From contig JAZPZL010000051.1 of NCBI GenBank assembly GCA_045544655.1, positions 1-35,727 of the forward strand: a stretch of 35,727 nucleotides of DNA. The letters run 5' to 3'. Positions 2,256-30,529 of the stretch are shown piece after piece. Numbering within the stretch: position 1 is the stretch's first letter; each line of letters opens with the position of its first letter. The translations under genes and the position numbers were made by a program. The DNA comes from Eubacteriales bacterium. GTDB taxonomy: Bacteria; Bacillota; Clostridia; Oscillospirales; SIG627. Below the pieces are notes generated by a model that had not been told where the DNA came from, searched no databases, and worked only from the letters and a program-made list of their open reading frames with translations.

Positions 2256-2290
2256 TGTCATTGCGTGTCAGTACTCCTTTCGTGTAGAAT
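2256..2290 (+). promoter_or_regulatory. promoter-like element, copy A of a shared 35-nt motif (TGTCA-N5-TGTCA ... TTTCGTgTAGAAT)
   Basis: tgtcattgcgtgtcagtactcctttcgtgtagaat. Readable as -35 TTGCGT, 18-nt spacer, TG-extended -10 TAGAAT. It ends 29 nt before the portal ATG and is 29/35 identical to 27238-27272. Confidence 0.5.
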
Positions 2291-2319
2291 CCGCTCAACG
2301 AAACAAACAAGGAGGCAAT

Positions 2320-3897
2320 ATGAAACAAACCAAACAGGAATTTCTCACGGAGGATTTTAAACTCTTGGAAAAGGGCAGGGAATACAATCGCGCCATTTCC
2401 CTTTACGATACGGTAAACCGCAACGAGCGCTTTTACCGCGGGGATCAGTGGCACGGTGTTGAAAAAGGAGATCTGCCCACGCCGGTCTTTAATCTCTTCA
2501 AGCGAGTGATCAACTACTTCATTTCCACCATTATGAGCCAAAAGATCTCGGTGCATTTTGCGGCGGAAGGAACGGAGATCTTTCACGATAAGGAAAAGCG
2601 CCTTCGTATGGAGGAGGCATGTAGACTTCTTACCCGATACGCCAATTACCGATTTGATCGGGATAAGGTGGATGATCTTCTGAATCGCGGTCTTCTGGAT
2701 GCGGCGGTGACGGGAGATATGTTTCTTTACGTGTACTGGGATCCGGAAAGAAAGACGGCGCAGGGCTTCAAGGGAGATTTTGTGACCACGCTGGTGGACA
2801 GTACTCAGGTCTTTTTCGGTGACGTAAACACCCCCGAGGTGGAATCGCAGCCCTACATCCTTTTGACGGGAAGAGAATTGGTATCCAAATTGCGCCGCGA
2901 GGCACTTGCAGGCGGCGCCACGGAGGAAGAGGCGGCGAAGATCGTCCCCGATGGAGATACGGAGAATCAAAGCGGTGATTTCGGAAAAAAGGAGCTGACG
3001 GATACCAAGGCAAGCTACGTGATTTGTATGTACAAAAAGGACGGTACCGTCCGCTTCCGTAAAAGCTGCAGAGAAACCGTGGTGGTGCCGGAGCGAGATA
3101 CGGGACTTTCCCTTTATCCCTTGGTTCTGATGAACTGGGAGCGGGTGAAAAACTCTTATCACGGGCAGGCGGCGGCGACGAACCTGGTGGAAAACCAGCT
3201 TTACATCAACAAGGCCTTTGCCATGGTGATGAAGCATATGATGGACGTTTCCTTTTCAAAGGTGATCTATAACGCAAATATCATCGATGAATGGACGGGC
3301 GACATTGGTGAGGCGATCGCGGTGAACGGGCCTGTAGAACACGCCGCCGACCGCCTGGACCCCGGAAGCTTGCAGGCAGGCTTTCTGGACGTGATCCAGA
3401 TGACCATTGGGATCACCAAGGAGCTGATGGGAGCCACCGATGCGGCGCTTGGCAACGTAGCGCCCGACAATACAAGCGCCATTATCGCTCTGCAGCAAAG
3501 CTCCGCCGTACCGCTGGAAATGCAGAGAAGAGCGCTCTATACGGCGGTAGAGCGCTTGGGGATGATCTGGCTGGATTTCATTCTGGAATTTTACGATGAA
3601 TCGAGAATGATGCTTTTCCGAGAAAAAGGTGAGCTGCTCGGCGGGAATATTTCTCCTCGTGAAATGAAAAACGTGTTGTTCTCCTGTACGACTCAGGCAG
3701 GCGCTTCCAGCCATTGGAGCGAAATTGCACAGATCACCACGCTGGATCATTTGCTTTCCTCGGGAAACATACGCTTCTCTCAGTATCTGGAGCGGATTCC
3801 CGACGGATATATTCCTGAGCGTGAGGAGCTTTTGGAAGAGGTAAAGGAAGAAGAAAGCAGACTCGCATCTCAAACCGATTTTCCGGCAAACGCCTGA
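2320..3897 (+). CDS. putative phage portal protein
   Basis: 525 aa, with SD aaggagg. First gene of a head module, immediately before scaffold-like and capsid-like genes. N-terminal RFYRGDQW-type motif resembles portal families. Size fits. No search was run. Confidence 0.6.
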   Translation: MKQTKQEFLTEDFKLLEKGREYNRAISLYDTVNRNERFYRGDQWHGVEKGDLPTPVFNLFKRVINYFISTIMSQKISVHFAAEGTEIFHDKEKRLRMEEACRLLTRYANYRFDRDKVDDLLNRGLLDAAVTGDMFLYVYWDPERKTAQGFKGDFVTTLVDSTQVFFGDVNTPEVESQPYILLTGRELVSKLRREALAGGATEEEAAKIVPDGDTENQSGDFGKKELTDTKASYVICMYKKDGTVRFRKSCRETVVVPERDTGLSLYPLVLMNWERVKNSYHGQAAATNLVENQLYINKAFAMVMKHMMDVSFSKVIYNANIIDEWTGDIGEAIAVNGPVEHAADRLDPGSLQAGFLDVIQMTIGITKELMGATDAALGNVAPDNTSAIIALQQSSAVPLEMQRRALYTAVERLGMIWLDFILEFYDESRMMLFREKGELLGGNISPREMKNVLFSCTTQAGASSHWSEIAQITTLDHLLSSGNIRFSQYLERIPDGYIPEREELLEEVKEEESRLASQTDFPANA

Positions 3898-3925
3898 AAA
3901 TAAATCAAAACAAAGGAGGAAAACC

Positions 3926-4348
3926 ATGAAAAAGAAAAAGGAAAAGGAAGTTCTTTCGGAAGAAAAGCTTCCCGAAGAGATCACCTCCGTTCAGGAGGAA
4001 GGCGCGGAGGCGCCTGACGCGGCAGAATTGATGGAGGAGGATATCGCACTCTTTCGCAGTCTGTTCCCCGAGGTGAAAGGAGAGGACATTCCTCAGGAGG
4101 TCTGGGACCGAGTGGAGGCGGGGGAAAGCCTTGCCGCAAGCTACGCCCTTTTTGCGGTGCGAAAGTTCCGTGAAGAGGAGAAGATCTCCCGTATCAACGA
4201 GGAAAACGGAAAAAAGGCACCGCCCCCCGTTGAGGGAGGCTCTGCCGATGGCGATTACTTTTCACCGGAGGCGGTGAAGAATATGAGCCGCAGCGAAATT
4301 CGCAAACACTACGACAAAATTTTATCTTCCATGGAAAAATGGAACTGA
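3926..4348 (+). CDS. putative scaffolding protein (acidic, helical, 140 aa)
   Basis: Sits between the portal-like and capsid-like genes. Very E/K-rich, low-complexity N-terminus. SD aaaggagg. Confidence 0.45.
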   Translation: MKKKKEKEVLSEEKLPEEITSVQEEGAEAPDAAELMEEDIALFRSLFPEVKGEDIPQEVWDRVEAGESLAASYALFAVRKFREEEKISRINEENGKKAPPPVEGGSADGDYFSPEAVKNMSRSEIRKHYDKILSSMEKWN

Positions 4349-4368
4349 AAAAGAAAGGATGAACGATT

Positions 4369-5205
4369 ATGGCTATTCAGAATTTTATTCCCACACTTTG
4401 GAGTGAGACCCTTTACACGGAGCTGGAAAAGGATTACGTCGGCGTAAAGCTTTGCTCTCGCGACTTCGAAGGCGAGATCCGCGGCGAGGGTGACCGTGTT
4501 AAAATTTGCGGGGTAGGACCCGTTACTGTATTCGACTATCACAAGAATCAGGATATGCCCGCCGCCGAGGTGCTTTCCGACACGGAGAGAACGCTGGTTA
4601 TCGATCAGGCAAAGGGCTTCAATTTCTTCCTGGATTCCATTGATCTGGCTCAGTCCAAGAAGGGCTTGATGCAGGCGGCGATGAAGGAGGCGTCCGGCGC
4701 CCTTTCCGACGTGGCTGATCGCTACATCTACTCCCTTACCGATGAAAACGTGGCGGAGCTTGAAAATGCTTCCGCTACCAGCACCAATATCATCAGCACC
4801 ATTGCCGAGGCGAGAAAAATGCTGATGGAGAACAACGTTCCCAACTCTGCCAAGGTATCTCTGGAGGTTCCCCCTGCCATTGAGCAGAAGCTGGTGCTTG
4901 CCAAGGTTCTGCGCTCCACCGACAACGTAGAGGCTTTGGGCAGAGGCTACATCGGCTCCTTTATGGGCTTTGATATTTACGTGACCAACAACATCACCCC
5001 TTCTGCCGACGGCTCTTACCGCTGTATTGCCAGAACCGCCCGTGCCATCGCTTTTGCGGAGCAGGTCTCTGCGGTGAAGGCGTATGAGCCCGAGCTTCGT
5101 CACGGCGACGCGGTGAAGGGACTGCATTTGTACGGCGCCAAGATCGTCTACCCCAAGGAAATGGTATTTCTGAACCTGACCCCCGGGGAAGAAGAAATGA
5201 TCTGA
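4369..5205 (+). CDS. putative major capsid protein (HK97-fold, P22-coat-like small capsid family)
   Basis: 278 aa. N-terminus MAIQNFIPTLWSE...VGV...RDFEGEI..GD.VKI matches the pattern I recall for roughly 280-300-aa clostridial phage capsid proteins. Position after the scaffold gene fits. Confidence 0.7.
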   Translation: MAIQNFIPTLWSETLYTELEKDYVGVKLCSRDFEGEIRGEGDRVKICGVGPVTVFDYHKNQDMPAAEVLSDTERTLVIDQAKGFNFFLDSIDLAQSKKGLMQAAMKEASGALSDVADRYIYSLTDENVAELENASATSTNIISTIAEARKMLMENNVPNSAKVSLEVPPAIEQKLVLAKVLRSTDNVEALGRGYIGSFMGFDIYVTNNITPSADGSYRCIARTARAIAFAEQVSAVKAYEPELRHGDAVKGLHLYGAKIVYPKEMVFLNLTPGEEEMI

Positions 5206-5236
5206 CCCGTTTTGCATCAGAAAATGGAGGAAGGAT

Positions 5237-5620
5237 ATGAAACGCGCTGAAGAACTGTATCACAGAAGTCTTGCCCTGATCGGAGAAATCCCCGGGGCGG
5301 AAAATCAAATTTTCAGGGAGCGTGCGGTTCCGCTGATGAACGTGCTCCTGTCTCAGCTTTACGAGCTGGATATTGCTTTGCGTGGCGGGAAGCTTTGCCC
5401 CGGCGGGATCATTCCTCAGGTCTCGCATCTGGAGGAAACGCTTCCCTTCAGCGAAGCCATCCTTTACACGGTGCTTCCCTTGGGGCTGGCGGGGCTTCTT
5501 TTGATGGAGGAGGAAGCGGAGCGGGGACGCTTCTTTCTCCAGCTTTATCACACCGAGGTGGAGATCCTGCGTGACCGATGCAAGCGTGGGGTCCGCCACA
5601 AGATCAGAAGGAGCGTGTAG
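5237..5620 (+). CDS. hypothetical protein, possible head-completion/adaptor protein
   Basis: 127 aa, with SD ggaggaagg, immediately after the capsid gene. Assigned by position only. Confidence 0.3.
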   Translation: MKRAEELYHRSLALIGEIPGAENQIFRERAVPLMNVLLSQLYELDIALRGGKLCPGGIIPQVSHLEETLPFSEAILYTVLPLGLAGLLLMEEEAERGRFFLQLYHTEVEILRDRCKRGVRHKIRRSV

Positions 5621-5623
5621 CGT

Positions 5624-7327
5624 ATGGCGAAGGATTTTACCCTTGAATTGGAGAGCTTCGGCGGTTTGAAGCTCTCTGCGGATAATACCGACGAGCTTGC
5701 CGTGGGAGAGGGCGCAGAGCTGATCAATTTCCGCATTACCGATGCCAAAAAGCTGAAGCGACGGGAGGGGTATTTCCGCGTTTTTGATGCGCCTTCCGCA
5801 TTGAGGGGGATCTTCTGCGCTTCCGTGAACGGCACTCCCGCGTATCTTGCACTTTGCGGAAAGCACCTTTACGCTTCCCGAGAGGGCTTTGACCGATTGG
5901 AGATGCTGGAAACGGAGGTAGGGGGAGAGGGGAAGGCGTTCTTTTTCCCCTATCACTCCGAGCTCTATCTTTTGACGGGAGAGAATATTTATCGCTACGA
6001 TGGAAAAAGCCTGTCGGAGATCGAGCCCTACGTTCCCGTGATTATGATCTGTACTCCGCCCGGGAAAAGCGGAACGGTATACGAGGATGTCAATCTTCTG
6101 ACCCGAAAGGTGCGCCAGCGCTTGTCTCCCGACGGGATCGGTACGGAGTTTCCTTTGCCGGTGGAAAACATCAAAAGTCTTGACTGGGTAAAGCTTTACG
6201 GAACGGATATGCGGGAGGACAGCTATTGGTTTGATATCGACGATCATTGCCTGAAATTCGTAGGTGCGCCCAGATCCGGTGTGGACAGCATTGAGGTCCA
6301 GTACGAGCTTGTCACCGAGGATGCTTCCGACCGCATCAAAAAATGCCGTTTCGCCACAGCCTTTGGCGGTGCCAGCGATACCCGCGTATTTCTGTACGGC
6401 AATCCCGACAGCCCCGCCGTGCGCTACCATAGCGGTATCGTGGACGGAAAGCCTTCCTTCACCTACTTCCCCGAAACTGCCTTTTCCCTTGTGGGAACGG
6501 GCGAACCCATTACCGCCATTTGCCGTCATTACGACCGCCAATTGATCTTTACCACGGGCAACGCCTACTATTCCTATCTGGAATATATGACGGGATCGGA
6601 GGGGAGGCTGATCGCAGGCTTCCCCGTTCTTCCTATGAATGAAGAGAGAGGCTGTGTTGCCTTGGGTCAGGCAATTCTGGTGAAAAATACCCCCGTTACC
6701 ATTGCCGAGGACGGTTTGTTTCAATGGATCTCCACCAATATACGAGATGAGAGAAACGCAGAAAATCTATCCGATCCCATCGATCAAGCCTTGCAAAAGG
6801 AGTCGCTTGAGCAAGCGATCCTGTTCAATCGCAAGGAAAAATCGGAGCTGTATTTATGCGTAGGTGAGAATCTGTACGTTTACAATTACCGTTTGAAGCT
6901 GTTCTATCGGTATAAGGTGCCGACCATTCTCGGCTTTTGCCAAGGGGATCAATTGTATTTTTACAATGAAGAGGGCATTTTTGCCGTGGGAGGAAATACG
7001 GATGACGGGCAAAGGATCTATGCGGTATGGAAATCAAAGCTGATGGATTTTTCCCACAAGACCCGTGCAAAAAAGCTGTTCGGGACTACGATGATCGCCA
7101 AAGGGGGAGAGGGAAGCGAATTGCAGATCTCCTTGAGAAATGAAAACGACACGGAAATGCTTACGAAGCGGGTACACTTTTCCGGAAAAAGGGAGGGGGA
7201 GCGCATCGAACTTCACACCCCCAAAAGGCGATTCGGGGCAATTGAGATCATTCTTGAGACGGACAGTGAGGAAAGCGTTCACGTGCTTTCCCTTCACTTC
7301 AGGGGAAGGATCACGGATGCAGAATAG
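5624..7327 (+). CDS. hypothetical virion-associated protein with repeated beta-propeller-like blades
   Basis: 567 aa, 3 nt after the previous stop. Recurrent G..LY.Y-type segments: HLYASREG, ELYLLTGENIYRYDG, GNAYYSYLEY, ELYLCVGENLYVYNY, DQLYFYNEEGIFAVGG. Confidence 0.35.
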   Translation: MAKDFTLELESFGGLKLSADNTDELAVGEGAELINFRITDAKKLKRREGYFRVFDAPSALRGIFCASVNGTPAYLALCGKHLYASREGFDRLEMLETEVGGEGKAFFFPYHSELYLLTGENIYRYDGKSLSEIEPYVPVIMICTPPGKSGTVYEDVNLLTRKVRQRLSPDGIGTEFPLPVENIKSLDWVKLYGTDMREDSYWFDIDDHCLKFVGAPRSGVDSIEVQYELVTEDASDRIKKCRFATAFGGASDTRVFLYGNPDSPAVRYHSGIVDGKPSFTYFPETAFSLVGTGEPITAICRHYDRQLIFTTGNAYYSYLEYMTGSEGRLIAGFPVLPMNEERGCVALGQAILVKNTPVTIAEDGLFQWISTNIRDERNAENLSDPIDQALQKESLEQAILFNRKEKSELYLCVGENLYVYNYRLKLFYRYKVPTILGFCQGDQLYFYNEEGIFAVGGNTDDGQRIYAVWKSKLMDFSHKTRAKKLFGTTMIAKGGEGSELQISLRNENDTEMLTKRVHFSGKREGERIELHTPKRRFGAIEIILETDSEESVHVLSLHFRGRITDAE

Positions 7328-7341
7328 GAAAGGAGAAGAAG

Positions 7342-8112
7342 ATGTCACAGACAGATACCATCAAGGCGTATTTGAAGCGACTGGAGGATGGGGCGGCAGA
7401 GATCCGCTCCCGATACAAAAATCTTGCCGCCGCCAGTGATGCCGAGTATCGCGCTAGGATCTCCCGTATGGATGCAGATTACAAGGATGCGGTCAGCGCC
7501 GCATCTGCCCAAGCCCAGATCCATCTGAAAAACAATCTGGAGAAAATGGCGGATGCGGGCTACGTCCGCTCCGGCGAGACGGTACAGGCAACCATTGCGG
7601 CAGGCGCAGACCGAGCGAAGATGCTCTCCTCTTTGAGAGGCGATTATACCCAGGAAAAACAAGCGGTGGAGAACGAGATGTCCCGCGCAAGGGATGGGAT
7701 TTTGCTGGAGGGAGAGAAGGAGGCGGCGGAATATGAAAACCTCGCTGCCGAGACCTTGCTTGCCCAGCAAAATGCCGATCGGGAGTTTGAAGCCGCGCAG
7801 AAACAGCGGGCGTTTGAAAACGAGCTGAAAAAGCAGTCCCTGGCTCAGTCGAAGGCGGAATTTGAATACAAGGTCTCCCAAGAGAAAAAAGAGAAGTCCG
7901 AGGAGGGGATCGTCCCCGAAAAGACGCCTTACGAATACGTAGAGGAGATCGTAAAGCAAAACAGCAGGTACAATAAGAAAAAGAAGTACACGGTGGTGGA
8001 TCGCAAGGCGATCCTGCTGGCGATCTCAGCGGTCGTGAAGGATACCCGCCTGTCCTACAAGTACCGATATGAAATGTACCTTTACGGAAAGAGTATGGGG
8101 TACCTTCAGTAA
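7342..8112 (+). CDS. hypothetical coiled-coil protein (A/E/K/Q-rich)
   Basis: 256 aa, with SD ggaaaggag. Last gene before a strong terminator. Composition is typical of internal virion or assembly proteins, but no motif was recognised. Confidence 0.3.
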   Translation: MSQTDTIKAYLKRLEDGAAEIRSRYKNLAAASDAEYRARISRMDADYKDAVSAASAQAQIHLKNNLEKMADAGYVRSGETVQATIAAGADRAKMLSSLRGDYTQEKQAVENEMSRARDGILLEGEKEAAEYENLAAETLLAQQNADREFEAAQKQRAFENELKKQSLAQSKAEFEYKVSQEKKEKSEEGIVPEKTPYEYVEEIVKQNSRYNKKKKYTVVDRKAILLAISAVVKDTRLSYKYRYEMYLYGKSMGYLQ

Positions 8113-8116: not shown

Positions 8117-8143
8117 AAAAAAGAGCCGAACGGCTCTTTTTTT
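8117..8143 (+). terminator. intrinsic terminator of the head operon
   Basis: Sequence aaaaaAGAGCCgaacGGCTCTtttttt; a GC stem flanked by an A-run and a 6-T run. Confidence 0.8.
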
Positions 8144-8519: not shown

Positions 8520-8636
8520 AGGTTTAGAACCGACGTACGAGTGTCGAAACGAATGAAAATATGAGGAAGAAAGTGGGTCGTGTATTCATTTTCTTTTTTC
8601 TATTGTTGTATATTTGTAGAGGAAAAACAAGAGGCT

Positions 8637-9230
8637 ATGCTGAATATCAATTTTATACTTACATACTTGGATGAAGAAGCGGATCAAAAGCTTTTGGAGG
8701 ATATCTTTTACGCCTATTCCAAGCAAATGGTAAGTCTTGCCATGACGTATCTGAAAAATAACGAGGATGCCGAGGACGCGGTGGGAACCGTATTCGAAAG
8801 AATCGCTTCCCGCAATTTTGACGTGGTACGAAGCATCAAAAACGATTGTGATATGCGTAACTATTTGTTGAAGGCGACGAAGAATACTTGTCTGAATATG
8901 CTCGGACAAAAGAAAATGACCGTATCCTTTGAACAAATTTCAGAATACGGCTACGTAGAGAAGGGAATGTGTTCGGACGATTCCTTTTTTGAAACGATCT
9001 GCAACAAAATGGACTATGAAGCGGTTCTGAAGGCAATCGGTTCTTTAAATGAAAAGTACCGCGATGCGCTTTATTATCATTTTGTGATGGAGATGACCGT
9101 TTCCGAGGTAGCCAAGCTTATGTTTCAATCCGTATCTGCAACGAAACAACAGCTTGTCCGCGGAAAGAAGATGCTTTTGGCTTTGTTATTAAAAGCGGGA
9201 GAGGAGAACGATGGCAATCAAAAGAAATGA
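8637..9230 (+). CDS. sigma-70 family (ECF-like) RNA polymerase sigma factor
   Basis: Region 2-like EDAEDAVGTVFERI...YLLKATKNTCLNML and region 4 HTH YRDALYYHFVMEMTVSEVAKLM. ATG at 8637 has a purine-rich SD (gaggaaaaacaagagg). The listed GTG 8580 extension reads as noncoding (FFYCCIF). Confidence 0.8.
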   Translation: MLNINFILTYLDEEADQKLLEDIFYAYSKQMVSLAMTYLKNNEDAEDAVGTVFERIASRNFDVVRSIKNDCDMRNYLLKATKNTCLNMLGQKKMTVSFEQISEYGYVEKGMCSDDSFFETICNKMDYEAVLKAIGSLNEKYRDALYYHFVMEMTVSEVAKLMFQSVSATKQQLVRGKKMLLALLLKAGEENDGNQKK

Positions 9231-9876
9231 GTTCCTTGAAGCCCTGCGCCGGGTGGTATCCGCCGAGTTTGAGCATATCCCGAAAACCGAAGAGGAGATC
9301 GACTACACGTTTTCACAGCGTTTTATGAAGCGGATGCTTCGGCTGTTCCGCAATCGGAAGAAGCTGTATTGGAAATTCGTAAATACCGGGGCAAAGCGTG
9401 TTGCGGTGATCCTTGTTGCCGCGGCGCTCGTCTTTGCTACGGCTTGCAGCTTTAAGCCCATCCGCGAGCCCATTATGCGCTTCATTACCGAGATCTACGA
9501 GACCTTCACCGCTTACTTCTTCGAGGGGGACACGGTAGGCGTCATCGAAAAGGAATACGCCCTGGAGGAGCCGCCCGAGGGATTTGTGGAAGTGGAACGG
9601 ACCGTTGGTGAGAGATTCATAACCACCGTTTACGAAAACAGCTCCGGTGATACCATCACCATAGTACAAATGCCAACGGATGAAATTCAATTGCTTCTTG
9701 ATCGAGAAATGGAATCTTCTGAAACAGAAATTGTAAACGGTACTGAGGTAGTTTTCTATGACTTGGGAACAAGAAAGCAAATGATGTGGATCAAGGATCA
9801 TTATTATTTTGACGTAGTATCAACGGGCGACGTTGATATGGAAATTTTGAAGAAGATCGTTGCTGATCTGAAATAA
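9211..9876 (+). CDS. putative anti-sigma factor, DUF4367-type single-pass membrane protein
   Basis: Overlaps the sigma gene by 20 nt. One TM segment (VAVILVAAALVFATA). Extracytoplasmic domain carries the PEGF...TTVYENSSGDTITIVQ pattern typical of DUF4367. Confidence 0.65.
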   Translation: MAIKRNEFLEALRRVVSAEFEHIPKTEEEIDYTFSQRFMKRMLRLFRNRKKLYWKFVNTGAKRVAVILVAAALVFATACSFKPIREPIMRFITEIYETFTAYFFEGDTVGVIEKEYALEEPPEGFVEVERTVGERFITTVYENSSGDTITIVQMPTDEIQLLLDREMESSETEIVNGTEVVFYDLGTRKQMMWIKDHYYFDVVSTGDVDMEILKKIVADLK

Positions 9877-12701: not shown

Positions 12702-14039
12702 ATGGTAAAAGAAAAAAGCGGCTTTTCCGTTGGCTATGCCCGTCTTGCCATCAATCCCCCCGCAGGCATCGGTCTGGGAGGCTTTGGCAATACCAACAGC
12801 CGTTTGAGTGAAACGGTGCTGGACGATCTTTGCGTGACCTGCGTAGCTTTGAACGACGGAGAACAGACGGTTTTGATGTATACGGTGGACTTCCTTGGGG
12901 TCTCACTGAACAATTACAAGATCATTTCCGCTTGGGTGGAGGAGAATCTTTCCATTCCCGCGGAGAACGTGTTTATTACGGCAACCCACAACCATTCCGC
13001 GCCTCAGGTGCGGGACGGATCCACCTCGGTCATTCCTTATATGCCCGTCTTTTACGAGGGAATGGGGGAGGTGGCACGCCTTGCGGTTGCGGATCTTTCC
13101 GAGGCGGAGCTTTTCATCGGCTCTTCCCGCACGGAGCATCTCAATTACGTGCGTCGCTACCTCCGCGAGGACGGTAGCTTCCATGGAGTGGGATGGTTCA
13201 CCCGAAACAAATCTCCCATTGCCCGCCACGAAAGTGACGCGGACGATCTGATGCAGGTGCTTCGCTTCGTGCGCAAGGGGAAAAAGGACGTGGTGATGGT
13301 CAACTGGCAATGCCACGTAACCACGACCAGCGGCTTGAAGCGTACCGACGTTTCCGCAGACTGGGTAGGTGCATTCCGCGAGGAAGCGGAGAGTGCTTTG
13401 GACGTGCATTTTGCCTATTATCAGGGAGCTTGCGGAAACCTGGTACCCAATTCCTATTTGCCCCGGGAGATCAGCAACAGCGATTATCACAAGCACGGCA
13501 AGGATCTGACGGAGACTTTGAAAAAGGCTTTGGAGGATTTAAAGCCCGTCGAGCCTGCCAAATTCCGTATCGTGCATTACAACCACTACGGTTATTTTCA
13601 GACGGATACCGAGGGGAAGGATCTGGGACAGGCCAGGGAGATCTGCGATGCCTTCGATCGGGGAGATACGGATGCGGTTCGGGATCTGTGCCTGGAATAC
13701 GGCTTCCATTCCAACTACCACGCAAAAGCCATTCTCGGCAGAAGCACGATGCCTAAAGACGCGGGAAAGGACATTCAGATGGCCGCCCTTTCCATGGGAC
13801 AGGTGGGAATCGTTTTCGCTCCTTACGAGATGTACGATACCAACGGAATGCAGATCAAGGCCCGTTCTCCCTTTGAAATGACGCTGATCTGCGGCTATAC
13901 CAACAATGCCTTCGGCTATATCCCATCCAAGCTGGGATTCCAAAACGGGGGATACGAGGTGGATGCCTGTACCTTCGCCGCAGGCACGGGAGAAATTCTG
14001 GTAGAGGAATATCTCAGACTTTTGAATGAGATCAAATAA
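12702..14039 (+). CDS. neutral/alkaline ceramidase N-terminal-domain-like hydrolase, cytoplasmic paralog
   Basis: GYARLAINPPAGIGLGGFGN...LCVTCVALNDGEQTVLMYTVDFLGVS...ITATHNHSAPQ resembles the neutral ceramidase N-domain pattern. No signal peptide. Confidence 0.6.
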   Translation: MVKEKSGFSVGYARLAINPPAGIGLGGFGNTNSRLSETVLDDLCVTCVALNDGEQTVLMYTVDFLGVSLNNYKIISAWVEENLSIPAENVFITATHNHSAPQVRDGSTSVIPYMPVFYEGMGEVARLAVADLSEAELFIGSSRTEHLNYVRRYLREDGSFHGVGWFTRNKSPIARHESDADDLMQVLRFVRKGKKDVVMVNWQCHVTTTSGLKRTDVSADWVGAFREEAESALDVHFAYYQGACGNLVPNSYLPREISNSDYHKHGKDLTETLKKALEDLKPVEPAKFRIVHYNHYGYFQTDTEGKDLGQAREICDAFDRGDTDAVRDLCLEYGFHSNYHAKAILGRSTMPKDAGKDIQMAALSMGQVGIVFAPYEMYDTNGMQIKARSPFEMTLICGYTNNAFGYIPSKLGFQNGGYEVDACTFAAGTGEILVEEYLRLLNEIK

Positions 14040-14042
14040 AAA

Positions 14043-15521: not shown

Positions 15522-15535
15522 GAAAGGAAAAAGAT

Positions 15536-23747: not shown

Positions 23748-24482
23748 TTAACGCTGGATCCCCAGATCCTCTAAGGTCAGGGAAGAATAATCCTCTTCCC
23801 CTTCATCTTCTTTTTCCTCTTCCGGAACGGTTTCCGTCTTGCTCGTTTCCCGCACGGTCTCTTCCTTGACGGGGATCATCCGAAGCCCCAGAGACAAGGC
23901 GTAAAAGACGTAATACAAAAAAGGAGAAATGGCAAAAAAAGAGTATCGGAAATAAGAGGTATGCCCCATGGGAAGGAGCTGAGAAAAGTAAAAGAAGGAG
24001 TACTTTTCCTGAAAGAGAGCGGACAAAACCAGGAGCAAAAGCTCGATCCCCAAGTAGGAGAAGATCATAACGGGCGCGATCTTTTCCGCATCGGGAAAAA
24101 AGGCGGCGAAGGCGGAAAATACGCCGATGAGAAGGATTCCCAGCATCGTCACGAACAGAGTGCCGTGGGTCTTTTCTTCAAAAAAGGACGGAATGCGCAG
24201 GATCGCGTACAGCGTCATGGGCAGGCAGGAAAGAAGAATGCCGATTCGCCTCGTTTTTTCCGTAAAGAATAGGGACGCGAGAAGGAGAAAAAAGGGCGCC
24301 GCCATCCAAACGCAGTCTGCGACGGTGCTTAAAACACCGCTGTTTACTCCGACGGGGATCTCAAAGCCCGTCTCAAAGCCCTTGGCATCGGAATGCCAGG
24401 CAAGGGTAAAAAAGGTGAAAAAGAGCATCCCCACCGCGCAAACGGCGGAAAGAGAGAGGAGGATGCGACGGAGTGATCTCAT
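23748..24482 (-). CDS. multi-pass membrane protein with acidic C-terminal tail, unknown function
   Basis: About six hydrophobic segments. C-terminal tail EEEKEDEGEEDYSSLTLEDL. SD aaagggga. 16 nt upstream of larA. Confidence 0.55.
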   Translation of the reverse strand: MRSLRRILLSLSAVCAVGMLFFTFFTLAWHSDAKGFETGFEIPVGVNSGVLSTVADCVWMAAPFFLLLASLFFTEKTRRIGILLSCLPMTLYAILRIPSFFEEKTHGTLFVTMLGILLIGVFSAFAAFFPDAEKIAPVMIFSYLGIELLLLVLSALFQEKYSFFYFSQLLPMGHTSYFRYSFFAISPFLYYVFYALSLGLRMIPVKEETVRETSKTETVPEEEKEDEGEEDYSSLTLEDLGIQR

Positions 24483-25424: not shown

Positions 25425-25453
25425 TTGATTGTAAATATCTTTATTGCTATAAT
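25425..25453 (+). promoter_or_regulatory. sigma-A promoter for the HAD hydrolase pair
   Basis: TTGATT (25425-25430), 17-nt spacer, TATAAT (25448-25453). Confidence 0.6.
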
Positions 25454-25486
25454 AAAGTCATAAGAAAATTGGAGGATTATGTTTCT

Positions 25487-26320: not shown

Positions 26321-26331
26321 GGAGAGAAAAA

Positions 26332-27189: not shown

Positions 27190-27196
27190 ATCAAAA

Positions 27197-27226
27197 ATCC
27201 GAAGCGAATACGCTTCCGATTTTTTT
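27197..27226 (+). terminator. intrinsic terminator after the HAD genes
   Basis: atccgaagcg-aata-cgcttccgat (one mismatch) followed by TTTTTT. Confidence 0.6.
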
Positions 27227-27237
27227 GCAGTGAAAAA

Positions 27238-27272
27238 TGTCATTGCGTGTCACGGCTTCTTTCGTCTATAAT
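27238..27272 (+). promoter_or_regulatory. promoter-like element, copy B of the shared 35-nt motif
   Basis: tgtcattgcgtgtcacggcttctttcgtctataat. Readable as -35 TTGCGT, 18-nt spacer, -10 TATAAT. It ends 27 nt before the terS GTG. Confidence 0.5.
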
Positions 27273-27299
27273 ACGGCAAAAATGAAAGGAGTAAAAGCC

Positions 27300-27689
27300 G
27301 TGAAAAAAATGACTGAGGACTTGGCGAAAAAGCGAATTTGCGCCTACTTCGTCTCCCGCAGGGTAGAGAAGCGGGATGCAGAGGGGAACGTTTTGGTGAA
27401 CAAAAGCGGTGAGGTCTTGTATGAAGAAAGACCCTGCACCGTGACGGGCCTTGCCCTGGCGCTGGGCTTTTCCGATCGGGAGGCGATTTTCGGCATCAAA
27501 AACAAAAAAATAAAAGTGCTCGTGGATCGAGCACTTTTGAAAATTGAAGAGGATGCGGAGGAAAAGCTCTTTTGCAAGGACACCTTCCACGGAGCAAAGC
27601 TGTTTTTGGAAACCAATTACAAGCGTTGGCAGGGAGAAGAGACTCAGGAGATCGCCGGACTTGGCGTTTGCTCCCAATGGGCGGAATAG
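27300..27689 (+). CDS. terS: phage terminase small subunit
   Basis: ...RPCTVTGLALALGFSDREAIF...DRALLKIEEDAEEKLF...GAKLFLETNY.RW matches the small-terminase (gp3-like) pattern. GTG 27300 lies 8 nt after SD aaaggag; ATG 27309 is the alternative. Confidence 0.8.
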   Translation: MKKMTEDLAKKRICAYFVSRRVEKRDAEGNVLVNKSGEVLYEERPCTVTGLALALGFSDREAIFGIKNKKIKVLVDRALLKIEEDAEEKLFCKDTFHGAKLFLETNYKRWQGEETQEIAGLGVCSQWAE

Positions 27690-28292
27690 CTACGGCTCAC
27701 GCACCAGATAAAAGGCGCCCTTGTGTATGACGATATCCGTCCATTTGCTCCCTTCGTTGCTGGTACCCAGTGTGAGGGTTGCGGGGAGCTGGGCGTGGTC
27801 CAAGGGATATTTTGCTCCGCTTACGGAGATCACGCCTGAACCTGTAAAATCGAAAAGGGAGAAATATCCCCCGTCAAAATCAAAACGGTAAGAGCCCTCC
27901 GTCAGGTAAGAAACGGAATAGTTTTCGTCTATGAGGATGCCTTGCGCGCCGTTTTCGGTTAAAAAGGCAAGAACCTGCAGATTTGCCAAGGAGTGGGAGA
28001 AGCGTTTTCCGCCCAAGGCTCCGTAAATTTTAAAAGCTCTGTAGCCCCAGCTGAGACCTTCTCTCACCGCTGCGTGAATATCCGTATCGTCTTTTACAGG
28101 GGGGAGAACCACGGTGTCGATCCCGTCGGGAGTGAAGCCCAAGGAATCCCCGTCGCCGATGAAAAGATCGGGGTGGATACCCGCTTTTTTAAGATGCTTG
28201 TAACCGGCATCTGCGGCAATGAGAAGATCTTCTTTTTCAAGATGCAAAAGGGAAGGAGAAAAATCTCCCGCTCCTACTACGTGGCAAATCAT
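27690..28292 (-). CDS. thiN: thiamine diphosphokinase
   Basis: VVGAGDF...LLIAADAGY...FIGDGDSLG...VKDDTDIH...YGALGGKRFSHSLANL is the TPK pattern. Its stop codon abuts the terS stop with a 0-nt gap. Confidence 0.8.
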   Translation of the reverse strand: MICHVVGAGDFSPSLLHLEKEDLLIAADAGYKHLKKAGIHPDLFIGDGDSLGFTPDGIDTVVLPPVKDDTDIHAAVREGLSWGYRAFKIYGALGGKRFSHSLANLQVLAFLTENGAQGILIDENYSVSYLTEGSYRFDFDGGYFSLFDFTGSGVISVSGAKYPLDHAQLPATLTLGTSNEGSKWTDIVIHKGAFYLVREP

Positions 28293-28301
28293 TGATAGCG
28301 T

Positions 28302-28949
28302 TTATCCTTTCTTGATCGTGGGAAGCTTTGCAAGGCAAAAGCCGCTGAAAGCGGTAATGAGAATTTCAGGCAGCATATAAAGTCCGTTGTATACGACGGA
28401 GTAAACGGTGGCAAGACCCGCGCCGCTGAAGGTCTTCATGACCCAGGCGGAAATGGCGAGATCCTTTGCCGCGCTTTCCGTAAAGAACCATTCTGCCCAC
28501 GCACCGTAGAAAACGGCACCGGAGATCACGTGGAAGAGGTAGCAGAGGAAAAGTCCCAGAACACTGCCCCAAACGATCGCCCATTTTTTGGAGAGGGTAT
28601 TGCGGAAGATTCCGCCGAGACCTACCGAGGTGAAGGCGAGTACGTAGTCCAGAAGCAAAATGAGAATGGCGATCCCTGCGCCCATATAGGAATCGGAGGT
28701 AGGGATGAAGAGGGCGGATACCGTCTTAAAGCCTACTGCCATTTGAAGCAGGGAAAAGACGAAGGCACTGCCCAGACCCCAGCCAAGCCCGTACATCCAG
28801 GAGATCAGAACCAGAGGCAAAAGACTTGCCAGGGTAATGGTTCCGCCGAAGGGAAGATTGAGAAAGGGGATCCATTCGGATACGAAGGAAATTGCGGTAC
28901 CCAAAGCAATGAGCATTGCCGAGGTGACCAGTTTTTGGGTTTTGTTCAT
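28302..28949 (-). CDS. thiT: energy-coupled (ECF) thiamine transporter S component
   Basis: Six-TM, 215-aa protein starting MNKTQKLVTSAMLIALGTAISFV. Directly downstream of a TPP riboswitch. SD aaggag. Confidence 0.8.
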   Translation of the reverse strand: MNKTQKLVTSAMLIALGTAISFVSEWIPFLNLPFGGTITLASLLPLVLISWMYGLGWGLGSAFVFSLLQMAVGFKTVSALFIPTSDSYMGAGIAILILLLDYVLAFTSVGLGGIFRNTLSKKWAIVWGSVLGLFLCYLFHVISGAVFYGAWAEWFFTESAAKDLAISAWVMKTFSGAGLATVYSVVYNGLYMLPEILITAFSGFCLAKLPTIKKG

Positions 28950-28964
28950 AACAAACTCCTTAAG

Positions 28965-28998
28965 AAAAAATTCGCACAGGACGGAAGTCCCGTGCGAA
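28965..28998 (-). terminator. riboswitch expression-platform terminator
   Basis: Minus strand reads GCACGGGAC-ttcc-GTCCTGTGC (one G-U) followed by GAATTTTTT, between the aptamer and the thiT SD. Confidence 0.7.
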
Positions 28999-29019
28999 CG
29001 CGAATCTGGTTCTCATAAA

Positions 29020-29100
29020 AACTCCCTACGCCGGTATTATCCATCTCAGGTTGGAGGGTTCGCGGTCTCCCGCATCTCAGCCGTTTCAACAGCACCCCTG
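29020..29100 (-). promoter_or_regulatory. TPP (THI-box) riboswitch aptamer
   Basis: Minus strand reads caGGGGTGCtgttgaaacgGCTGAGAtgcgggagaccgcgaACCCtccAACCTGAgatGGATAATACCgGCGTAGGGAgt. All conserved THI-box blocks are present. Confidence 0.9.
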
Positions 29101-29125
29101 TTTTTCCGCTCATGTGCGTGACATT

Positions 29126-29154
29126 ATCTTAGTCCTTTTTTCACGGTTTGTCAA
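29126..29154 (-). promoter_or_regulatory. sigma-A promoter of the thiT-thiN operon
   Basis: Minus strand reads TTGACA (29149-29154), 17-nt spacer, TAAGAT (29126-29131), about 25 nt upstream of the riboswitch. Confidence 0.65.
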
Positions 29155-29161
29155 GAGAAAA

Positions 29162-30529
29162 ATGAATGCAATTGAAAAATTATTGTCGTCTCTCCATCCG
29201 TTCCCGCCTCAGGAGGCGTTTTTTCGTGCCAAGGCTCGGAGGATCGCCTACGGCGGTGCCAGAGGTGGCGGAAAAAGCTTTGCCATGCGCGCCAAGCTGG
29301 TCCTGCTCGCCTTGCGCTACGGGGGGATTCAGATCCTGCTTTTGCGTCGTAGCTTTCCCGAGTTGCGGGAAAACCATATCAATCCTCTGCGCCGATGGCT
29401 CCACGGGATCGCCCATTTTCGGGAATCCACCAAGGAGTTTATTTTCCCCAACGGCTCACGGATCAAATTGGGATATCTGGCTGAGGAAGCCGACGCCCTC
29501 CAGTATCAGGGTCAGGCGTATGAGGTGATCGGGATGGAGGAAGCCACCCAATTTACCGAAAACCAGTATTACGCGATGACCGAATGCTGCCGTCTTTCGG
29601 GAGCAATGCGGGAAAAATTCGTTCCCCGTATGTACTTTACCATGAACCCGGGAGGAGTGGGTCACGCCTGGGTCAAGCGGCTTTTTATTGATCGGGACTA
29701 TCGGGAGGGGGAGTGTGCCGAGGATTACGTTTTCATCCCCTCCACGGTGTATGATAACCGCTATTTGCTGAAAGAAAATCCGGAATACGTGCGAAATCTG
29801 GAAAGCCTTCCTCCCTTGCGGCGTAAGGCGATGCTGGAGGGGGATTGGGACGCCTTCGAGGGACAGTATTTTACGGAATTTGACCGAAAACGCCACGAGA
29901 TCCCACCTTTTGAGATCCCCGGTGGCTGGCACCGCTTTGCGGCAGTGGACTACGGACTGGATATGACCTGCTGTCTGTGGTTTGCCTATCCTCCCGACCG
30001 AAGCCGACTGGTGGTCTATCGGGAGCTGCATCAGCCGGATCTGGTGCTTTCCGAAGCGGCGCGGAAAATTGCGGAGGCAACGGGAGAAGAGGAGCTGCGG
30101 TATATTGCCGCATCTCCGGACCTTGCGGGCAGACGGCAGGACCTGGGAAAAACGGGCTTTGATATTATGGCGGGGGGAGGCCTTAAGGGGCTTGTTCCCG
30201 CAGACAACAGCCGCATTCCGGGCTGGCGGCGCATACGGGAATTTTTGAGAGCGGAAGGGGAGGAGGGCGCTTATTTCGGTATTTTTTCTTCCTGTCCCAA
30301 TCTTCTCCGCACTTTGCCCCGATTGACCTTCGACTCCGTGCATACCGAGGATGCCGCCTTGACTCCTCACGAGATCACCCACGCCCCCGATGCTCTGCGG
30401 TACGGACTTGCCTCCTTGAGCTTCTTGCCGGGACAAAGGGTGGAAAGCGCGGAGCGGATCCGAGATCTGCGGGCGGAGTTTTTCGGAAAGAAGGAGCGGT
30501 CTTTGTATTTTGATTTTTTGAAAAAGTAA
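29162..30529 (+). CDS. terL: phage terminase large subunit
   Basis: Walker A YGGARGGGKS, Walker B-like YEVIGMEEA, nuclease-domain AAVDYGLD and C-terminal HAPDALRY. 455 aa from ATG 29162. The listed 29051 start lies inside the riboswitch. Confidence 0.85.
   Translation: MNAIEKLLSSLHPFPPQEAFFRAKARRIAYGGARGGGKSFAMRAKLVLLALRYGGIQILLLRRSFPELRENHINPLRRWLHGIAHFRESTKEFIFPNGSRIKLGYLAEEADALQYQGQAYEVIGMEEATQFTENQYYAMTECCRLSGAMREKFVPRMYFTMNPGGVGHAWVKRLFIDRDYREGECAEDYVFIPSTVYDNRYLLKENPEYVRNLESLPPLRRKAMLEGDWDAFEGQYFTEFDRKRHEIPPFEIPGGWHRFAAVDYGLDMTCCLWFAYPPDRSRLVVYRELHQPDLVLSEAARKIAEATGEEELRYIAASPDLAGRRQDLGKTGFDIMAGGGLKGLVPADNSRIPGWRRIREFLRAEGEEGAYFGIFSSCPNLLRTLPRLTFDSVHTEDAALTPHEITHAPDALRYGLASLSFLPGQRVESAERIRDLRAEFFGKKERSLYFDFLKK

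Follow-up and report, generated by a model that had tools for sequence, protein, structure and literature searches.

Phage head and packaging genes dispersed among cellular genes in an uncultured gut Clostridia genome: part of a probable gene transfer agent-like particle system

The window, i.e., the whole stretch of 35,727 nucleotides analysed here (Eubacteriales bacterium, contig JAZPZL010000051.1), contains a six-gene head operon (positions 2320-8112) encoding a portal, a scaffold-like protein, an HK97-type capsid and proteins of 127, 567 and 256 aa, as well as the genes of a small (TerS) and a large (TerL) terminase, located 19-21 kb from the head operon. A sequence-only reading of this DNA had reported eight phage open reading frames, with the head operon set apart from the terminases by about 20 cellular genes; all eight are present and uninterrupted at the coordinates it gave, and the intervening cellular genes number about 21. 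The boundaries of the operon that it proposed are likewise recovered. A terminator-like hairpin (2213-2246, + strand), whose 15-bp stem leads into a T run, shields the head promoter from the genes upstream. The promoter itself (2256-2290, +) has the form TGTCATTGCGTGTCA-N14-TAGAAT and is of the phage late (PterS-like) type, and a bidirectional terminator (8117-8142), an 11-bp stem with A and T runs on either side, closes the operon.

The first gene (2320-3897, +) codes for a 525-aa portal of the podovirus type (PF16510 P22_portal, 2.6e-15; phrog_156, 1.4e-31) that shares 30% identity with the portal of Bacillus phage Page (E 1e-62). The major capsid protein (4369-5205, +; 278 aa) is of the HK97 type (PF25209, 5e-12; phrog_267, 5e-40) and matches a solved capsid, that of mycobacteriophage Che8 gp6 (PDB 8E16), over residues 1-271 with E 2.8e-31. 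Of its 1976 homologs, the 120 with the best scores form a graded series from 98 to 67% identity, almost all of them being 272-286 aa long. Both identities proposed earlier thus hold by sequence, through the solved capsid and the annotated podovirus portal, rather than by fold search. Between these two genes lies that of an acidic 140-aa protein (3926-4348, +), kept in 69 loci and weakly matching the Page gene in scaffold position; its composition and place suggest a scaffold function.

The three remaining proteins of the operon may close the portal vertex and extend it into a tail. The 127-aa helical protein (5237-5620, +) is, from its position, a candidate head-tail adaptor; homologs occur in 48 fetched cassettes, placed after the capsid or after the portal, and a single-sequence model of low confidence (pLDDT 55) gave a four-helix pattern and no fold match. 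The 567-aa protein (5624-7327, +) matches phrog_3287 “virion structural protein” (1.3e-12) and Page_15, which bears the same annotation (28% identity, E 1e-44) and adjoins the tail fibre gene in the tail module of podophage Page. Found in 68 loci, it is a candidate tail hub or nozzle, judging from position and this one phage homolog. The last gene of the cassette (7342-8112, +) encodes a 256-aa coiled-coil-rich protein kept in 61 loci, among which its C-terminal half is charged and variable; it gave no match to any family or in the PDB, and may be a plug, a needle or an internal protein.

The small terminase (27300-27689, +; 129 aa, GTG start) matches phrog_606 (1.6e-7) and, under the Pfam cut-off, PF16677 (1.2e-5); it is 93% identical to its homolog in one related locus (L114) and 83% in another (L024). 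The large terminase (29162-30529, +; 455 aa) is of the PBSX/Terminase_3 type (Terminase_3/6N: PF04466, 8e-14; PF03237, 4e-12; phrog_979, 7e-46), with a further match, under the cut-off, to TIGR01547 (2.5e-16). Its ATPase and nuclease motifs are intact, and Walker A GGARGGGKS, VIGMEE and AVDYG can be read in the translation. TerL homologs exceed 6500, and the top 120 listed grade from 94 to 58% identity, most of them being about 445-460 aa long.

The cellular genes between head operon and terminases include an ECF sigma factor with a DUF4367 partner, HTH proteins, dpaB- and dpaA-like genes, three ceramidase-like paralogs, two AraC regulators, GH20, LarA, two HAD hydrolases, a thiamin pyrophosphokinase and ThiT with a TPP riboswitch, the thiamine operon sitting between TerS and TerL. 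The dpaAB genes named by the sequence-only reading are present, their names resting on family and gene order only, and their nearness is local synteny that offers no evidence for a link to sporulation. Searches of the window with Pfam and PHROGs also agree with that reading in showing no gene for an integrase, for replication, or for a tape measure, a fibre, a holin or an endolysin.

Head operon and TerS share a promoter. The 15-nt core of the element at 2256-2290 is repeated exactly at 27238-27252, within a second motif copy ahead of TerS (27238-27272, +; TGTCATTGCGTGTCA-N14-TATAAT). Chance would give 0.05 occurrences of TGTCA-N5-TGTCA; the window has two, the portal and TerS copies, and no others. 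TerL has no motif copy of its own and only a weak ribosome-binding site. Its transcription could come from the TerS promoter by read-through, which would run antisense to the thiamine genes. Among related loci, nearly all those of group A carry a single copy upstream of the portal and none elsewhere in 1.68 Mb, and the motif also precedes TerS in L003, L024, L114, L189, L190 and L004. In phage contigs, it lies at the 3′ end of DUF1492/sigma70_r4 genes, ahead of HNH, terS or scaffold-capsid genes, and IMG/VR phage contigs bear a nearly identical motif (TGTCATTGAATGTCA) beside their own activator genes. This placement agrees with the Ltr/PterS system of Gram-positive phages, whose late activators are RinA, ArpU, LtrA/sigma70_r4, LtrB/DUF1492 and LtrC (PMC3753634); the site between a DUF1492/sigma70_r4 gene and terS is exactly that of PterS. 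An Ltr protein may bind TGTCA-N5-TGTCA. Unlike PterS, the promoter of the window is uncoupled from any activator gene and is duplicated before the portal and, in relatives, before lysis and fibre genes. Neither the window nor the 10 kb around related loci contains an activator gene, with the exception of L059, where a chromosomal one lies 2 kb from the cassette and other phage genes are absent from the vicinity; this leaves host control conjectural.

A relative of the portal is encoded in at least 484 species-level genomes, and the best 80 relatives match over almost the full length, all in metagenome-assembled genomes (MAGs) of uncultured gut or rumen Clostridia. As every one of the genomes is a MAG, there is uncertainty about copy number and completeness. 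In close relatives the genes are intact: homologs of the eight open reading frames are uninterrupted wherever found in more than 85 related loci, none of which shows a contiguous prophage with integrase or att sites. For relatives with unsaturated dS (the comparisons spanning dS 0.45 to above 2), dN/dS ranges from 0.02 to 0.19 over all eight genes (portal, 0.03-0.09; scaffold-like protein, 0.11-0.19; capsid, 0.02-0.09; 256-aa protein, 0.08-0.19; TerS, about 0.05; TerL, 0.08), and one more distant pair of the 127-aa protein gave 0.49. Neighbouring cellular genes in the same relatives gave 0.06-0.25, the phage genes being as low or lower and the capsid more conserved than the adjacent housekeeping genes. 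That TerS and TerL are so strongly conserved points to selection on DNA packaging itself.

The chromosomal positions of the head cassette are fixed across species, which points to vertical inheritance. In the near clade, the cassette stands between constant neighbours, with RNase H, MnmA and a binding-protein gene coming after it; in another clade it adjoins a GntR regulator and an ABC-transporter-like gene, and in group B the entire cluster mostly follows LepA and HemW. The gap between head and terminase genes measures 3.9 kb in L024, 19 kb in the window, which has extra AraC, GH20, LarA and HAD genes absent from L024, and about 85 kb on a single contig in JAFWZW01 (L036 and L003); in JAZSAT01 (L027, L189) and JAZQJZ01 (L032, L190) the two lie on separate contigs.

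Following the 35-nt motif through relatives, as had been proposed, recovered lysis and fibre loci. In L109 and L181-L185, a holin (PF09682), a collagen-like fibre and an Amidase_3 (7e-34) stand behind the same promoter type. Two such modules share a contig with a head cassette: in L037 a second motif copy leads into a coiled-coil protein and a phiLC3-like holin, and in L058 a fibre-like protein, a holin-like protein and an Amidase_3 follow a weaker motif-like site. Some cassette variants contain holins or an M15 peptidase. For the closest relatives of the window, what ties the fibre/lysis cassette to the system is only a near-identical promoter sequence on short metagenome contigs (L109) and not a shared genome. 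Fibre proteins are fast-evolving, with C-terminal domains that vary.

Taken together, the window probably belongs to a podovirus-derived particle system of the gene transfer agent (GTA) kind, fixed in the chromosome at several loci. Podovirus ancestry is suggested by the matches of the portal and the 567-aa protein to Page, synteny and dN/dS indicate long-term purifying selection and support the host-retained capsid and packaging system proposed at the outset, and the evidence favours domestication over decay: a gene set conserved in hundreds of related species is likely a gene transfer agent, not a dying prophage. In such a system, an Ltr-like activator encoded elsewhere would turn on all loci jointly in some cells; portal, scaffold and capsid would build a small procapsid, into which TerS and TerL would load DNA by headful; the 127-, 567- and 256-aa proteins would seal the portal vertex and extend into a short tail with collagen-like fibres; and holin and amidase would lyse the producer cell. 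With loci 20 to more than 85 kb apart, the whole gene set could not fit one particle, and the cargo would accordingly be mainly host DNA.

Of the known systems, FpGTA, the podovirus-like GTA of Faecalibacterium prausnitzii (Borodovich et al., 2026; PMC12946183), comes closest; its authors place Faecalibacterium in the Ruminococcaceae. They report GTA-like packaging in Oscillospiraceae and Ruminococcaceae, including several taxa without an identified gene cluster (PMC12946183), and the MAGs with relatives of the window system bear the labels Oscillospiraceae, Ruminococcus or just Clostridia. Besides hosts among these families of gut Clostridia, both systems have a podovirus-like set of TerS, TerL, portal, scaffold, capsid and a few conserved unknowns, a second locus that encodes a holin, an endolysin and a fibre or receptor-binding protein, no genes for replication or integration, and near-ubiquity in the host group. 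On the other hand, operon I of FpGTA is a single 10.5-kb operon, whereas the window separates TerS, TerL and head cassette; by annotation, the FpGTA capsid is N4-gp56, whereas that of the window is Che8-like and does not match the N4-gp56 NCBIfam model; and FpGTA is documented by electron microscopy, proteomics and DNA-size data, the window system being known from genes alone. The earlier claim of a system not described for this lineage consequently stands in part: FpGTA was known, and the different capsid family and split multi-locus layout are both absent from its description (PMC12946183). In the more distant RcGTA of Alphaproteobacteria, structural, fibre and lysis genes are likewise dispersed in a multi-locus “genome” under purifying selection with vertical inheritance and no self-transmission (PMC9662315). 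RcGTA differs in its siphovirus-like, HK97-type head-tail cluster with tape measure and its control by CtrA, GafA and quorum sensing, and belongs to another phylum; sequence kinship is not expected.

It is possible, if unlikely, that the loci lack an activator and depend for induction on the Ltr-type late activator of a phage, either infecting or induced. The particles would then resemble a decentralised capsid-forming satellite and serve to interfere with the phage, through piracy of capsids or packaging or through abortive defence, or to export DNA when infection triggers it. The late-type promoter, the pairing of almost the same motif with activators in IMG/VR phages and the lack of an activator in the window and nearly all related loci would fit, as would the reports that Ltr proteins suffice for late operon expression and that SaPI transfer needs the late operon of a helper phage to be expressed (PMC3753634). 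However, Ltr activators are reported to be specific to their cognate control regions (PMC3753634) and the spacer bases differ here, L059 keeps its chromosomal activator, defence-system models gave no match, and absence within 10 kb is weak evidence given the large unexplored share of the genomes. Own terminase, fibre and lysis genes also make a helper unneeded for structure. Capsid-forming PICIs and other satellites do encode a capsid, a portal and a small terminase themselves and are inducible through phage functions, but they are contiguous, integrase-bearing, replicating islands that take tails and often TerL from a helper, whereas the window system has scattered genes, TerL, fibre and lysis genes, and no integrase, replication module or att site.

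That the domesticated particle serves something else than gene transfer, for example as a PBSX-like killing particle that packages DNA without delivering it, or as a structure related to lysis or biofilms, seems improbable. The authors of FpGTA leave that question undecided for their particles (PMC12946183), and fast-evolving fibres with variable C-terminal domains suit target recognition and hence killing as well as transfer. PBSX of Bacillus subtilis is indeed a domesticated, non-propagating particle of a Gram-positive host that packages host DNA, and TerL is of the PBSX family type, under the model cut-off. PBSX is, by contrast, a single contiguous, myovirus-like, SOS-induced element, and its killing needs a contractile tail; none is encoded here, relatives suggest a short tail of the podovirus type, and packaging itself seems selected.

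Prophage remnants broken by insertions and rearrangements and heading for loss would account for the scattering of the genes and the variation of intervening blocks among close relatives, but intact open reading frames, low dN/dS, fixed positions, a conserved promoter and a highly conserved capsid make this very unlikely, and it is already contradicted by the present data. A chimeric contig fusing phage and bacterial DNA is barely conceivable: the source is probably a MAG, yet GC is uniform over the window without compositional anomaly, and independent assemblies have identical junctions (cassette-dpaBA in L024 and L025; MBL-cassette in L025, L026 and L119; unk244-TerS-TPK/ThiT-TerL-QueG in L003 and, for the parts covered, in L024, L114, L189 and L190).

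Among deposited phages, the closest to the probable GTA-like system are Page, a Bacillus megaterium podophage (Pagevirus), and its relatives. Page is a 40-kb autonomous phage with a tail spike, replication functions and many more genes, and its TerL and capsid have no similarity to those of the window detectable by BLAST, but it shares the order TerS, TerL, small open reading frame, portal, scaffold, capsid.

The head operon consists of six genes read in one direction between positions 2320 and 8112, as delimited by ORF listing and family searches. The first gene, starting at 2320, is predicted to encode the portal protein on the strength of Pfam and PHROG portal models (PF16510, 2.6e-15; phrog_156, 1.4e-31) and of 30% identity (E 1e-62) with the portal, annotated "podovirus-type," of Page, a podophage of Bacillus megaterium. 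It is followed by the genes for an acidic, scaffold-like 140-aa protein, for a predicted 278-aa major capsid protein starting at 4369 (PF25209, 5e-12; phrog_267, 5e-40), and for proteins of 127, 567, and 256 aa, of which the 567-aa protein matches phrog_3287, "virion structural protein" (1.3e-12). The capsid protein is probably of the HK97 type, since it aligns over its full length with a solved relative, gp6 of mycobacteriophage Che8 (PDB 8E16, E 2.8e-31). PDB profile searches returned no match for the portal, one weak match for the 567-aa protein (26fb_K, "Structural protein," E 0.007), and only spurious coiled-coil matches for the 256-aa and 127-aa proteins. Single-sequence AlphaFold2 models of the 567-aa and 127-aa proteins reached pLDDT values of 34 and 55, respectively, and a Foldseek search of the PDB with the latter model gave no match below E 6. 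No NCBIfam model matched the structural proteins, and no PADLOC defence model found a match.

The small terminase TerS (27300–27689; phrog_606, 1.6e-7) and the large terminase TerL (29162–30529; Terminase_3/6N; phrog_979, 7e-46) lie 19–21 kb downstream of the head operon, and Walker A, Walker B-like and nuclease aspartate motifs are visible in the TerL translation. About 21 ordinary cellular genes on both strands separate the head operon from the terminases. They encode an ECF sigma factor and its DUF4367 partner, HTH proteins, dpaB-like and dpaA-like products, three ceramidase-like paralogs, two AraC regulators, a GH20 enzyme, LarA and two HAD hydrolases. GC content is even throughout the window, which holds no tRNA gene, and family and PHROG searches of the window found no integrase, replication, tape-measure, fibre, holin, or endolysin gene; among the proteins that had remained without assignment, PHROGs added only HTH regulators and the sigma factor. 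The sequence-only reading had described this arrangement of an intact head operon and two terminases among cellular genes, named the 2320 and 4369 products as portal-like and capsid-like, and listed the same missing functions, and on each of these points the searches agree with it. In the window, as in the related loci described below, the host chromosome carries phage-derived structural and packaging genes but no accompanying functions for replication or integration.

Two sites in the window share a promoter motif. The head promoter (2256–2290) reads TGTCATTGCGTGTCA, 14 nt and TAGAAT; it stands directly 3′ of a terminator-like hairpin (2213–2246), and the portal start follows 30 nt on. The TerS promoter (27238–27272) has an identical 15-nt core and identical spacing to its TATAAT element. 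For the direct repeat TGTCA-N5-TGTCA, the window has two occurrences where chance would give 0.05. A weight matrix built from 38 related sites, of the form TGTCATTG-NN-TG[TG]CA-N14-TAnnnT, recovered these two sites only, with neither a third site in the window nor one before TerL. The 5′ flank of TerL is instead occupied by the divergent promoter of thiT with its riboswitch, part of a thiamine salvage unit (27690–29109, minus strand) that runs antisense between the two terminase genes: a TPP riboswitch (29006–29109, minus strand; RF00059, 66.9 bits) precedes the genes for the ThiT transporter (28302–28949, minus strand) and thiamin pyrophosphokinase (TPK; 27690–28292, minus strand). As no terminator-like site was found on the plus strand between the TerS stop and the TerL start, transcription that starts at the TerS promoter could possibly continue into TerL, crossing the thiamine genes in antisense direction.

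The same motif recurs in relatives at corresponding places. It is found once upstream of the portal gene in nearly all loci of the nearer group of relatives (group A, described below) and upstream of TerS in six related loci (L003, L024, L114, L189, L190, and L004), and in relatives it also precedes lysis/fibre cassettes; apart from those lysis- and fibre-associated sites, no other occurrence was detected in 1.68 Mb of related DNA. Several loci therefore appear to stand under common regulation by a shared promoter. A broader motif scan of metagenomes gave 77 matches, most of them due to chance or other contexts. In six of the metagenome stretches (L125, L128, L137, L140, L143, and L145; GC 0.39–0.46), the motif lies outside any head or packaging context, between a gene for a 544–571-aa protein and an XRE-type HTH gene, both on the opposite strand.

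In IMG/VR, 18 viral stretches contain the variant TGTCATTGAATGTCA-N14-TATAAT. There it precedes HNH, TerS, TerL, and portal genes, and in most cases it either follows a gene for a 133–165-aa DUF1492-like or sigma-70 region 4-like protein or overlaps the 3′ end of that gene. One phage contig carries the motif twice, before TerS and before the scaffold and capsid genes, and in the phage contigs L006–L023 the activator gene lies directly upstream of the promoter and terS. In several of the latter the motif overlaps the final codons of the activator gene (e.g., ...MSLNVS...), so that coding and regulatory constraints coincide there. The variant thus holds in these contigs the place of PterS, the late promoter of phages of Gram-positive bacteria, next to its activators LtrA (sigma70_r4) or LtrB (DUF1492), and experiments have shown that Ltr activators suffice to have the late operon of such phages transcribed (PMC3753634). 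Because of this shared position, the window promoter would be a phage late promoter that was duplicated and uncoupled from any activator gene: whereas Ltr/PterS systems have the activator gene directly upstream, the window keeps the promoter alone. Indeed, an HMM of the activators found no homolog in the window, nor within 10 kb of the related loci except in L059, where a gene for a 156-aa activator-like protein lies 2 kb upstream of the cassette.

The gene family is widespread. The capsid protein has 1976 database homologs, the best 120 of which form a smooth series from 98 to 67% identity and are nearly all 272–286 aa long; several capsid homologs lie on contigs of at least 100 kb from MAGs of Clostridia, Oscillospiraceae, and "Ruminococcaceae," and the TerL homologs form a similarly graded series. 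A scan with the portal alignment over one genome per species found a relative in at least 484 genomes. In the best 80 of these the match spans almost the whole protein, and the carriers are uncultured Clostridia of gut or rumen origin (sheep, goat, yak, buffalo, deer, rabbit, chicken, and human).

When the eight window proteins were mapped on the portal loci and the neighbouring genes clustered, three layouts emerged. Group A1, with portals 57–90% identical to that of the window, has a stand-alone cassette with no adjoining terminase, in the order portal, scaffold, capsid, 130-aa, 567-aa, and 256-aa homolog, sometimes with a glycine-rich protein of about 350 aa before the last. In many species of its near clade the cassette has the same neighbours on either side, and RNase H, MnmA, and a 1057-aa binding protein follow. 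Group A2, with likewise conserved flanks, has the order portal, 130-aa, 567-aa, scaffold, capsid, glycine-rich protein, M15 peptidase, and 256-aa homolog. Group B (portal about 50%, TerL 55–64%, and capsid only 30–32% identical to the window) has one contiguous cluster of 10–11 kb with TerS, TerL, portal, scaffold, capsid, a decoration-like protein, and the 130-aa, 567-aa, and 256-aa homologs; a Hol44-type holin ends the cluster in many, and the cluster mostly follows LepA and HemW, with housekeeping genes flanking. Group B also has a different control region with GCGGGATTTT repeats, which suggests a different activator. In many of these clusters (L061–L103) the region lies about 60–130 nt upstream of TerS; some of the regions begin with two or three direct repeats of GCGGGATTTTCTTCGGAAAAAA, and the more widely common part reads CG[GA]GATGA-N17-19-TGnTAAnAT. 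No integrase or replication module stands beside the cassette in the A1, A2, and B loci.

The distance between head genes and terminases varies. In L024, the relative with a 90% identical portal, TerS follows 3.9 kb after the head cassette in a backbone of dpaBA, one ceramidase-like gene, unk244 (a conserved neighbour of TerS), TerS, TPK/ThiT, and TerL. The window contains this backbone with three extra blocks. In JAFWZW01, the two parts (L036 and L003) are about 85 kb apart on one contig, and in JAZSAT01 (L027 and L189) and JAZQJZ01 (L032 and L190) they lie on different contigs. The order unk244, TerS, TPK-ThiT on the opposite strand, TerL, and a QueG-like gene is kept down to 81% TerL identity, the thiamine unit itself being retained in L003, L024, L114, L189, and L190; a more distant lineage has TerS and TerL side by side as an isolated pair amid core genes. 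A chimeric contig is ruled out, since independent assemblies reproduce every junction. The dispersal of head and terminase genes is genuine and variable, and the layouts form an evolutionary series that leads from one contiguous cluster to a regulon in separate pieces. Spacings of 20 to more than 85 kb, or separate contigs, are indirect evidence for particles that would carry essentially random host DNA in pieces too short for the complete gene set, as expected of a GTA.

Selection was estimated as dN/dS by the Nei-Gojobori method among relatives with unsaturated dS, several more distant pairs being saturated and giving no estimate. Over a dS range from 0.45 to above 2, the ratio was 0.02–0.09 for the capsid, 0.03–0.09 for the portal, about 0.05 for TerS, 0.08 for TerL, 0.11–0.19 for the scaffold, 0.09–0.18 for the 567-aa protein, 0.08–0.19 for the 256-aa protein, and 0.06–0.25 for the 127-aa protein (0.49 at the most distant pair), compared with 0.06–0.25 for the adjacent MBL, dpaA/B, TPK, and ThiT genes. 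The capsid is 97% conserved against 64–87% for housekeeping neighbours, and the distal proteins are the faster-evolving ones, as would be expected of tail components. Flanking genes, identity series and dN/dS point to vertical inheritance and purifying selection in the host lineage. The comparison of synteny and dN/dS across relatives that the sequence-only reading had proposed hence argues against decay, with conserved flanks and low ratios.

The lysis and fibre functions missing from the window were encountered in relatives. From close relatives, the metagenome motif scan recovered the expected loci of the head genes (L119) and of TerS (L114); it also recovered a further stretch, L109, whose promoter differs at three positions from the window's head promoter and precedes genes for a 109-aa holin, a 134-aa membrane/coiled-coil protein, and a collagen-repeat protein. 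Homologs of the last occur in stand-alone cassettes of a holin (PF09682), a 135-aa protein, and a 351–454-aa fibre, some of the fibres with collagen repeats, to which the longer contigs L181 and L182 add a 173-aa protein and an Amidase_3 endolysin (7e-34). These cassettes carry one-mismatch variants of the motif upstream and are flanked by HAD, phosphatase, two-component, or dehydrogenase genes. In group A MAGs such modules also share a contig with the head cassette: in L037 the motif occurs a second time, at a distance of 9.5 kb from that cassette, and precedes genes for a coiled-coil protein and a phiLC3-like holin, and in L058 a site resembling the motif, 8 kb upstream of the portal, is followed by a 3.5-kb module (fibre-like, 234-aa, coiled-coil, and holin-like proteins and an Amidase_3, 3.6e-12) that ends about 4 kb from the head cassette. 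Holins (PF05105) stand between capsid and candidate adaptor in L019, L037, L057, and L058, and an amidase precedes the cassette in L019. The earlier proposal that the motif would lead to the missing loci was thus borne out for relatives, the window itself having no such genes. Pooled over relatives, the full gene set with these holin, fibre, and endolysin modules would correspond to a lytic particle with a short tail.

Among deposited phages the closest are Page, Pony, Pookie, and related podophages of B. megaterium. Page_15, a "virion structural protein" encoded beside a tail fibre gene in the tail module, shares 28% identity (E 1e-44) with the 567-aa protein; the window TerL and capsid, however, are not Page-like, and the ancestor would be a mosaic for that reason. 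Two "Bacteriophage sp." scaffolds from a human faecal virome, L188 (MT836592.1) and MT836833.1, of 9.6 and 10.8 kb, also match the portal and/or the 567-aa protein. MT836592.1 contains TerS, TerL, portal, scaffold, capsid (41% identical to that of the window), and a 567-aa-like protein in a full run, and may represent a GTA-like cluster that entered the database under the name of a phage.

Taken together, the best explanation is probably a multi-locus, podovirus-derived, GTA-like particle system. That it is domesticated and retained by the host, as first proposed from the sequence, appears well supported by synteny, selection, shared regulation by one promoter, and the recovery of missing modules in relatives. 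The closest known counterpart is FpGTA, the podovirus-like gene transfer agent of Faecalibacterium (Borodovich et al., 2026; PMC12946183), which has a 10.5-kb operon I of ten genes, including TerS, TerL, portal, scaffold, and capsid, a 5.5-kb operon II at a distance of 125 kb that encodes fibre, receptor-binding protein, holin, and endolysin, and 40-nm tail-less-looking capsids containing about 9 kb of DNA (PMC12946183). On paper the window system would work like FpGTA. The single 10–11-kb cluster of group B resembles operon I, and a locus like operon II was found in relatives, though not in the window. On the other hand, the window and all group A relatives have the TerS, TerL, and head genes split, where FpGTA has them in one operon of about 10.5 kb. 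The annotation of the FpGTA capsid is N4-gp56 (RCH50849.1), whereas neither the window capsid nor a group B capsid matches any NCBIfam model, N4-gp56 included, and Faecalibacterium is not among the best 80 of the at least 484 portal loci. Identity with FpGTA was dropped because the capsid family differs, the two being set apart by FpGTA's published annotation. No description of the window's gene family was found in the literature.

A bolder and rather improbable extension is that the scattered loci form a regulon that has no activator of its own and is wired to the late promoter of local phages. Infection or induction would then supply a phage Ltr-type activator, upon which host capsids would package chromosomal DNA, as an infection-triggered gene-transfer or interference device. 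Should this be true, a phage-triggered regulon could underlie unexplained GTA-like packaging signals in gut Oscillospiraceae. Returning to the GTA-like particle system, a defective or cryptic prophage was rejected given the lack of an integrase or tRNA gene in the window and the intact, conserved ORFs of the relatives under purifying selection. A capsid-forming PICI or other phage satellite was rejected since the hallmarks of such a contiguous island (integrase, replication module, att sites) appear neither in the window nor in the related loci; in one locus, L004, a serine recombinase adjoins the TerS-TerL pair. A link with sporulation through dpaAB comes down to local synteny, many relatives having the head cassette elsewhere and dpaBA with the terminase locus. 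The ECF sigma factor was discarded as the regulator, being absent beside the cassette in L024 and the motif being unlike an ECF promoter, and an encapsulin-like compartment is dismissed by the presence of portal and terminase.

The system is not categorically new; it is widespread and directly testable. Recent work found the GTA-like packaging of host DNA to be common among gut Oscillospiraceae and Ruminococcaceae; outside Faecalibacterium it was reported in other Oscillospiraceae, Ruminococcaceae, and Christensenellaceae with the genes not located (PMC12946183), and a 2026 preprint describes the same failure for Pelethomonas (bioRxiv 10.64898/2026.07.08.737213). With portal relatives in so many species genomes, the window's family is a concrete, widespread candidate for such packaging. 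Prophage finders would tend to miss 2–6-kb pieces scattered among housekeeping genes, and the promoter motif can be used to gather all loci of the system in any genome. If active, the system would be a major gene-flow route in rumen and gut Clostridia and a second, independent podovirus-type GTA lineage in Gram-positive bacteria.

Several neighbouring genes have features of their own. The ECF sigma/DUF4367 pair directly follows the head cassette (8580–9876) and recurs, at 63 and 38% identity, in L003 (16098–17320), 5 kb downstream of TerL; its link to the particle system is doubtful because the pair is missing at the corresponding position of L024. The large serine recombinase of L004/L005 (11549–12886) lies directly downstream of a stand-alone TerS-TerL pair, among the core genes PGI, PrmA, RsmE, and FtsEX. 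The conserved multi-pass membrane protein unk244, with an acidic C-terminal tail and no family match, is encoded divergently next to TerS in relatives (L024, 18788–19519; L003, 7236–8060); in the window (23748–24482, minus strand) an AraC-HAD-HAD block stands between the two. The three ceramidase-like paralogs (12702–17014) are in tandem and 43–66% identical by cross-hits, with one copy in L024 and three in L025. Lastly, the 204-aa protein encoded at 86–700 matches no family; in the close relatives L025, L026, and L119, two or three diverged copies of it are encoded in tandem upstream of the head cassette.
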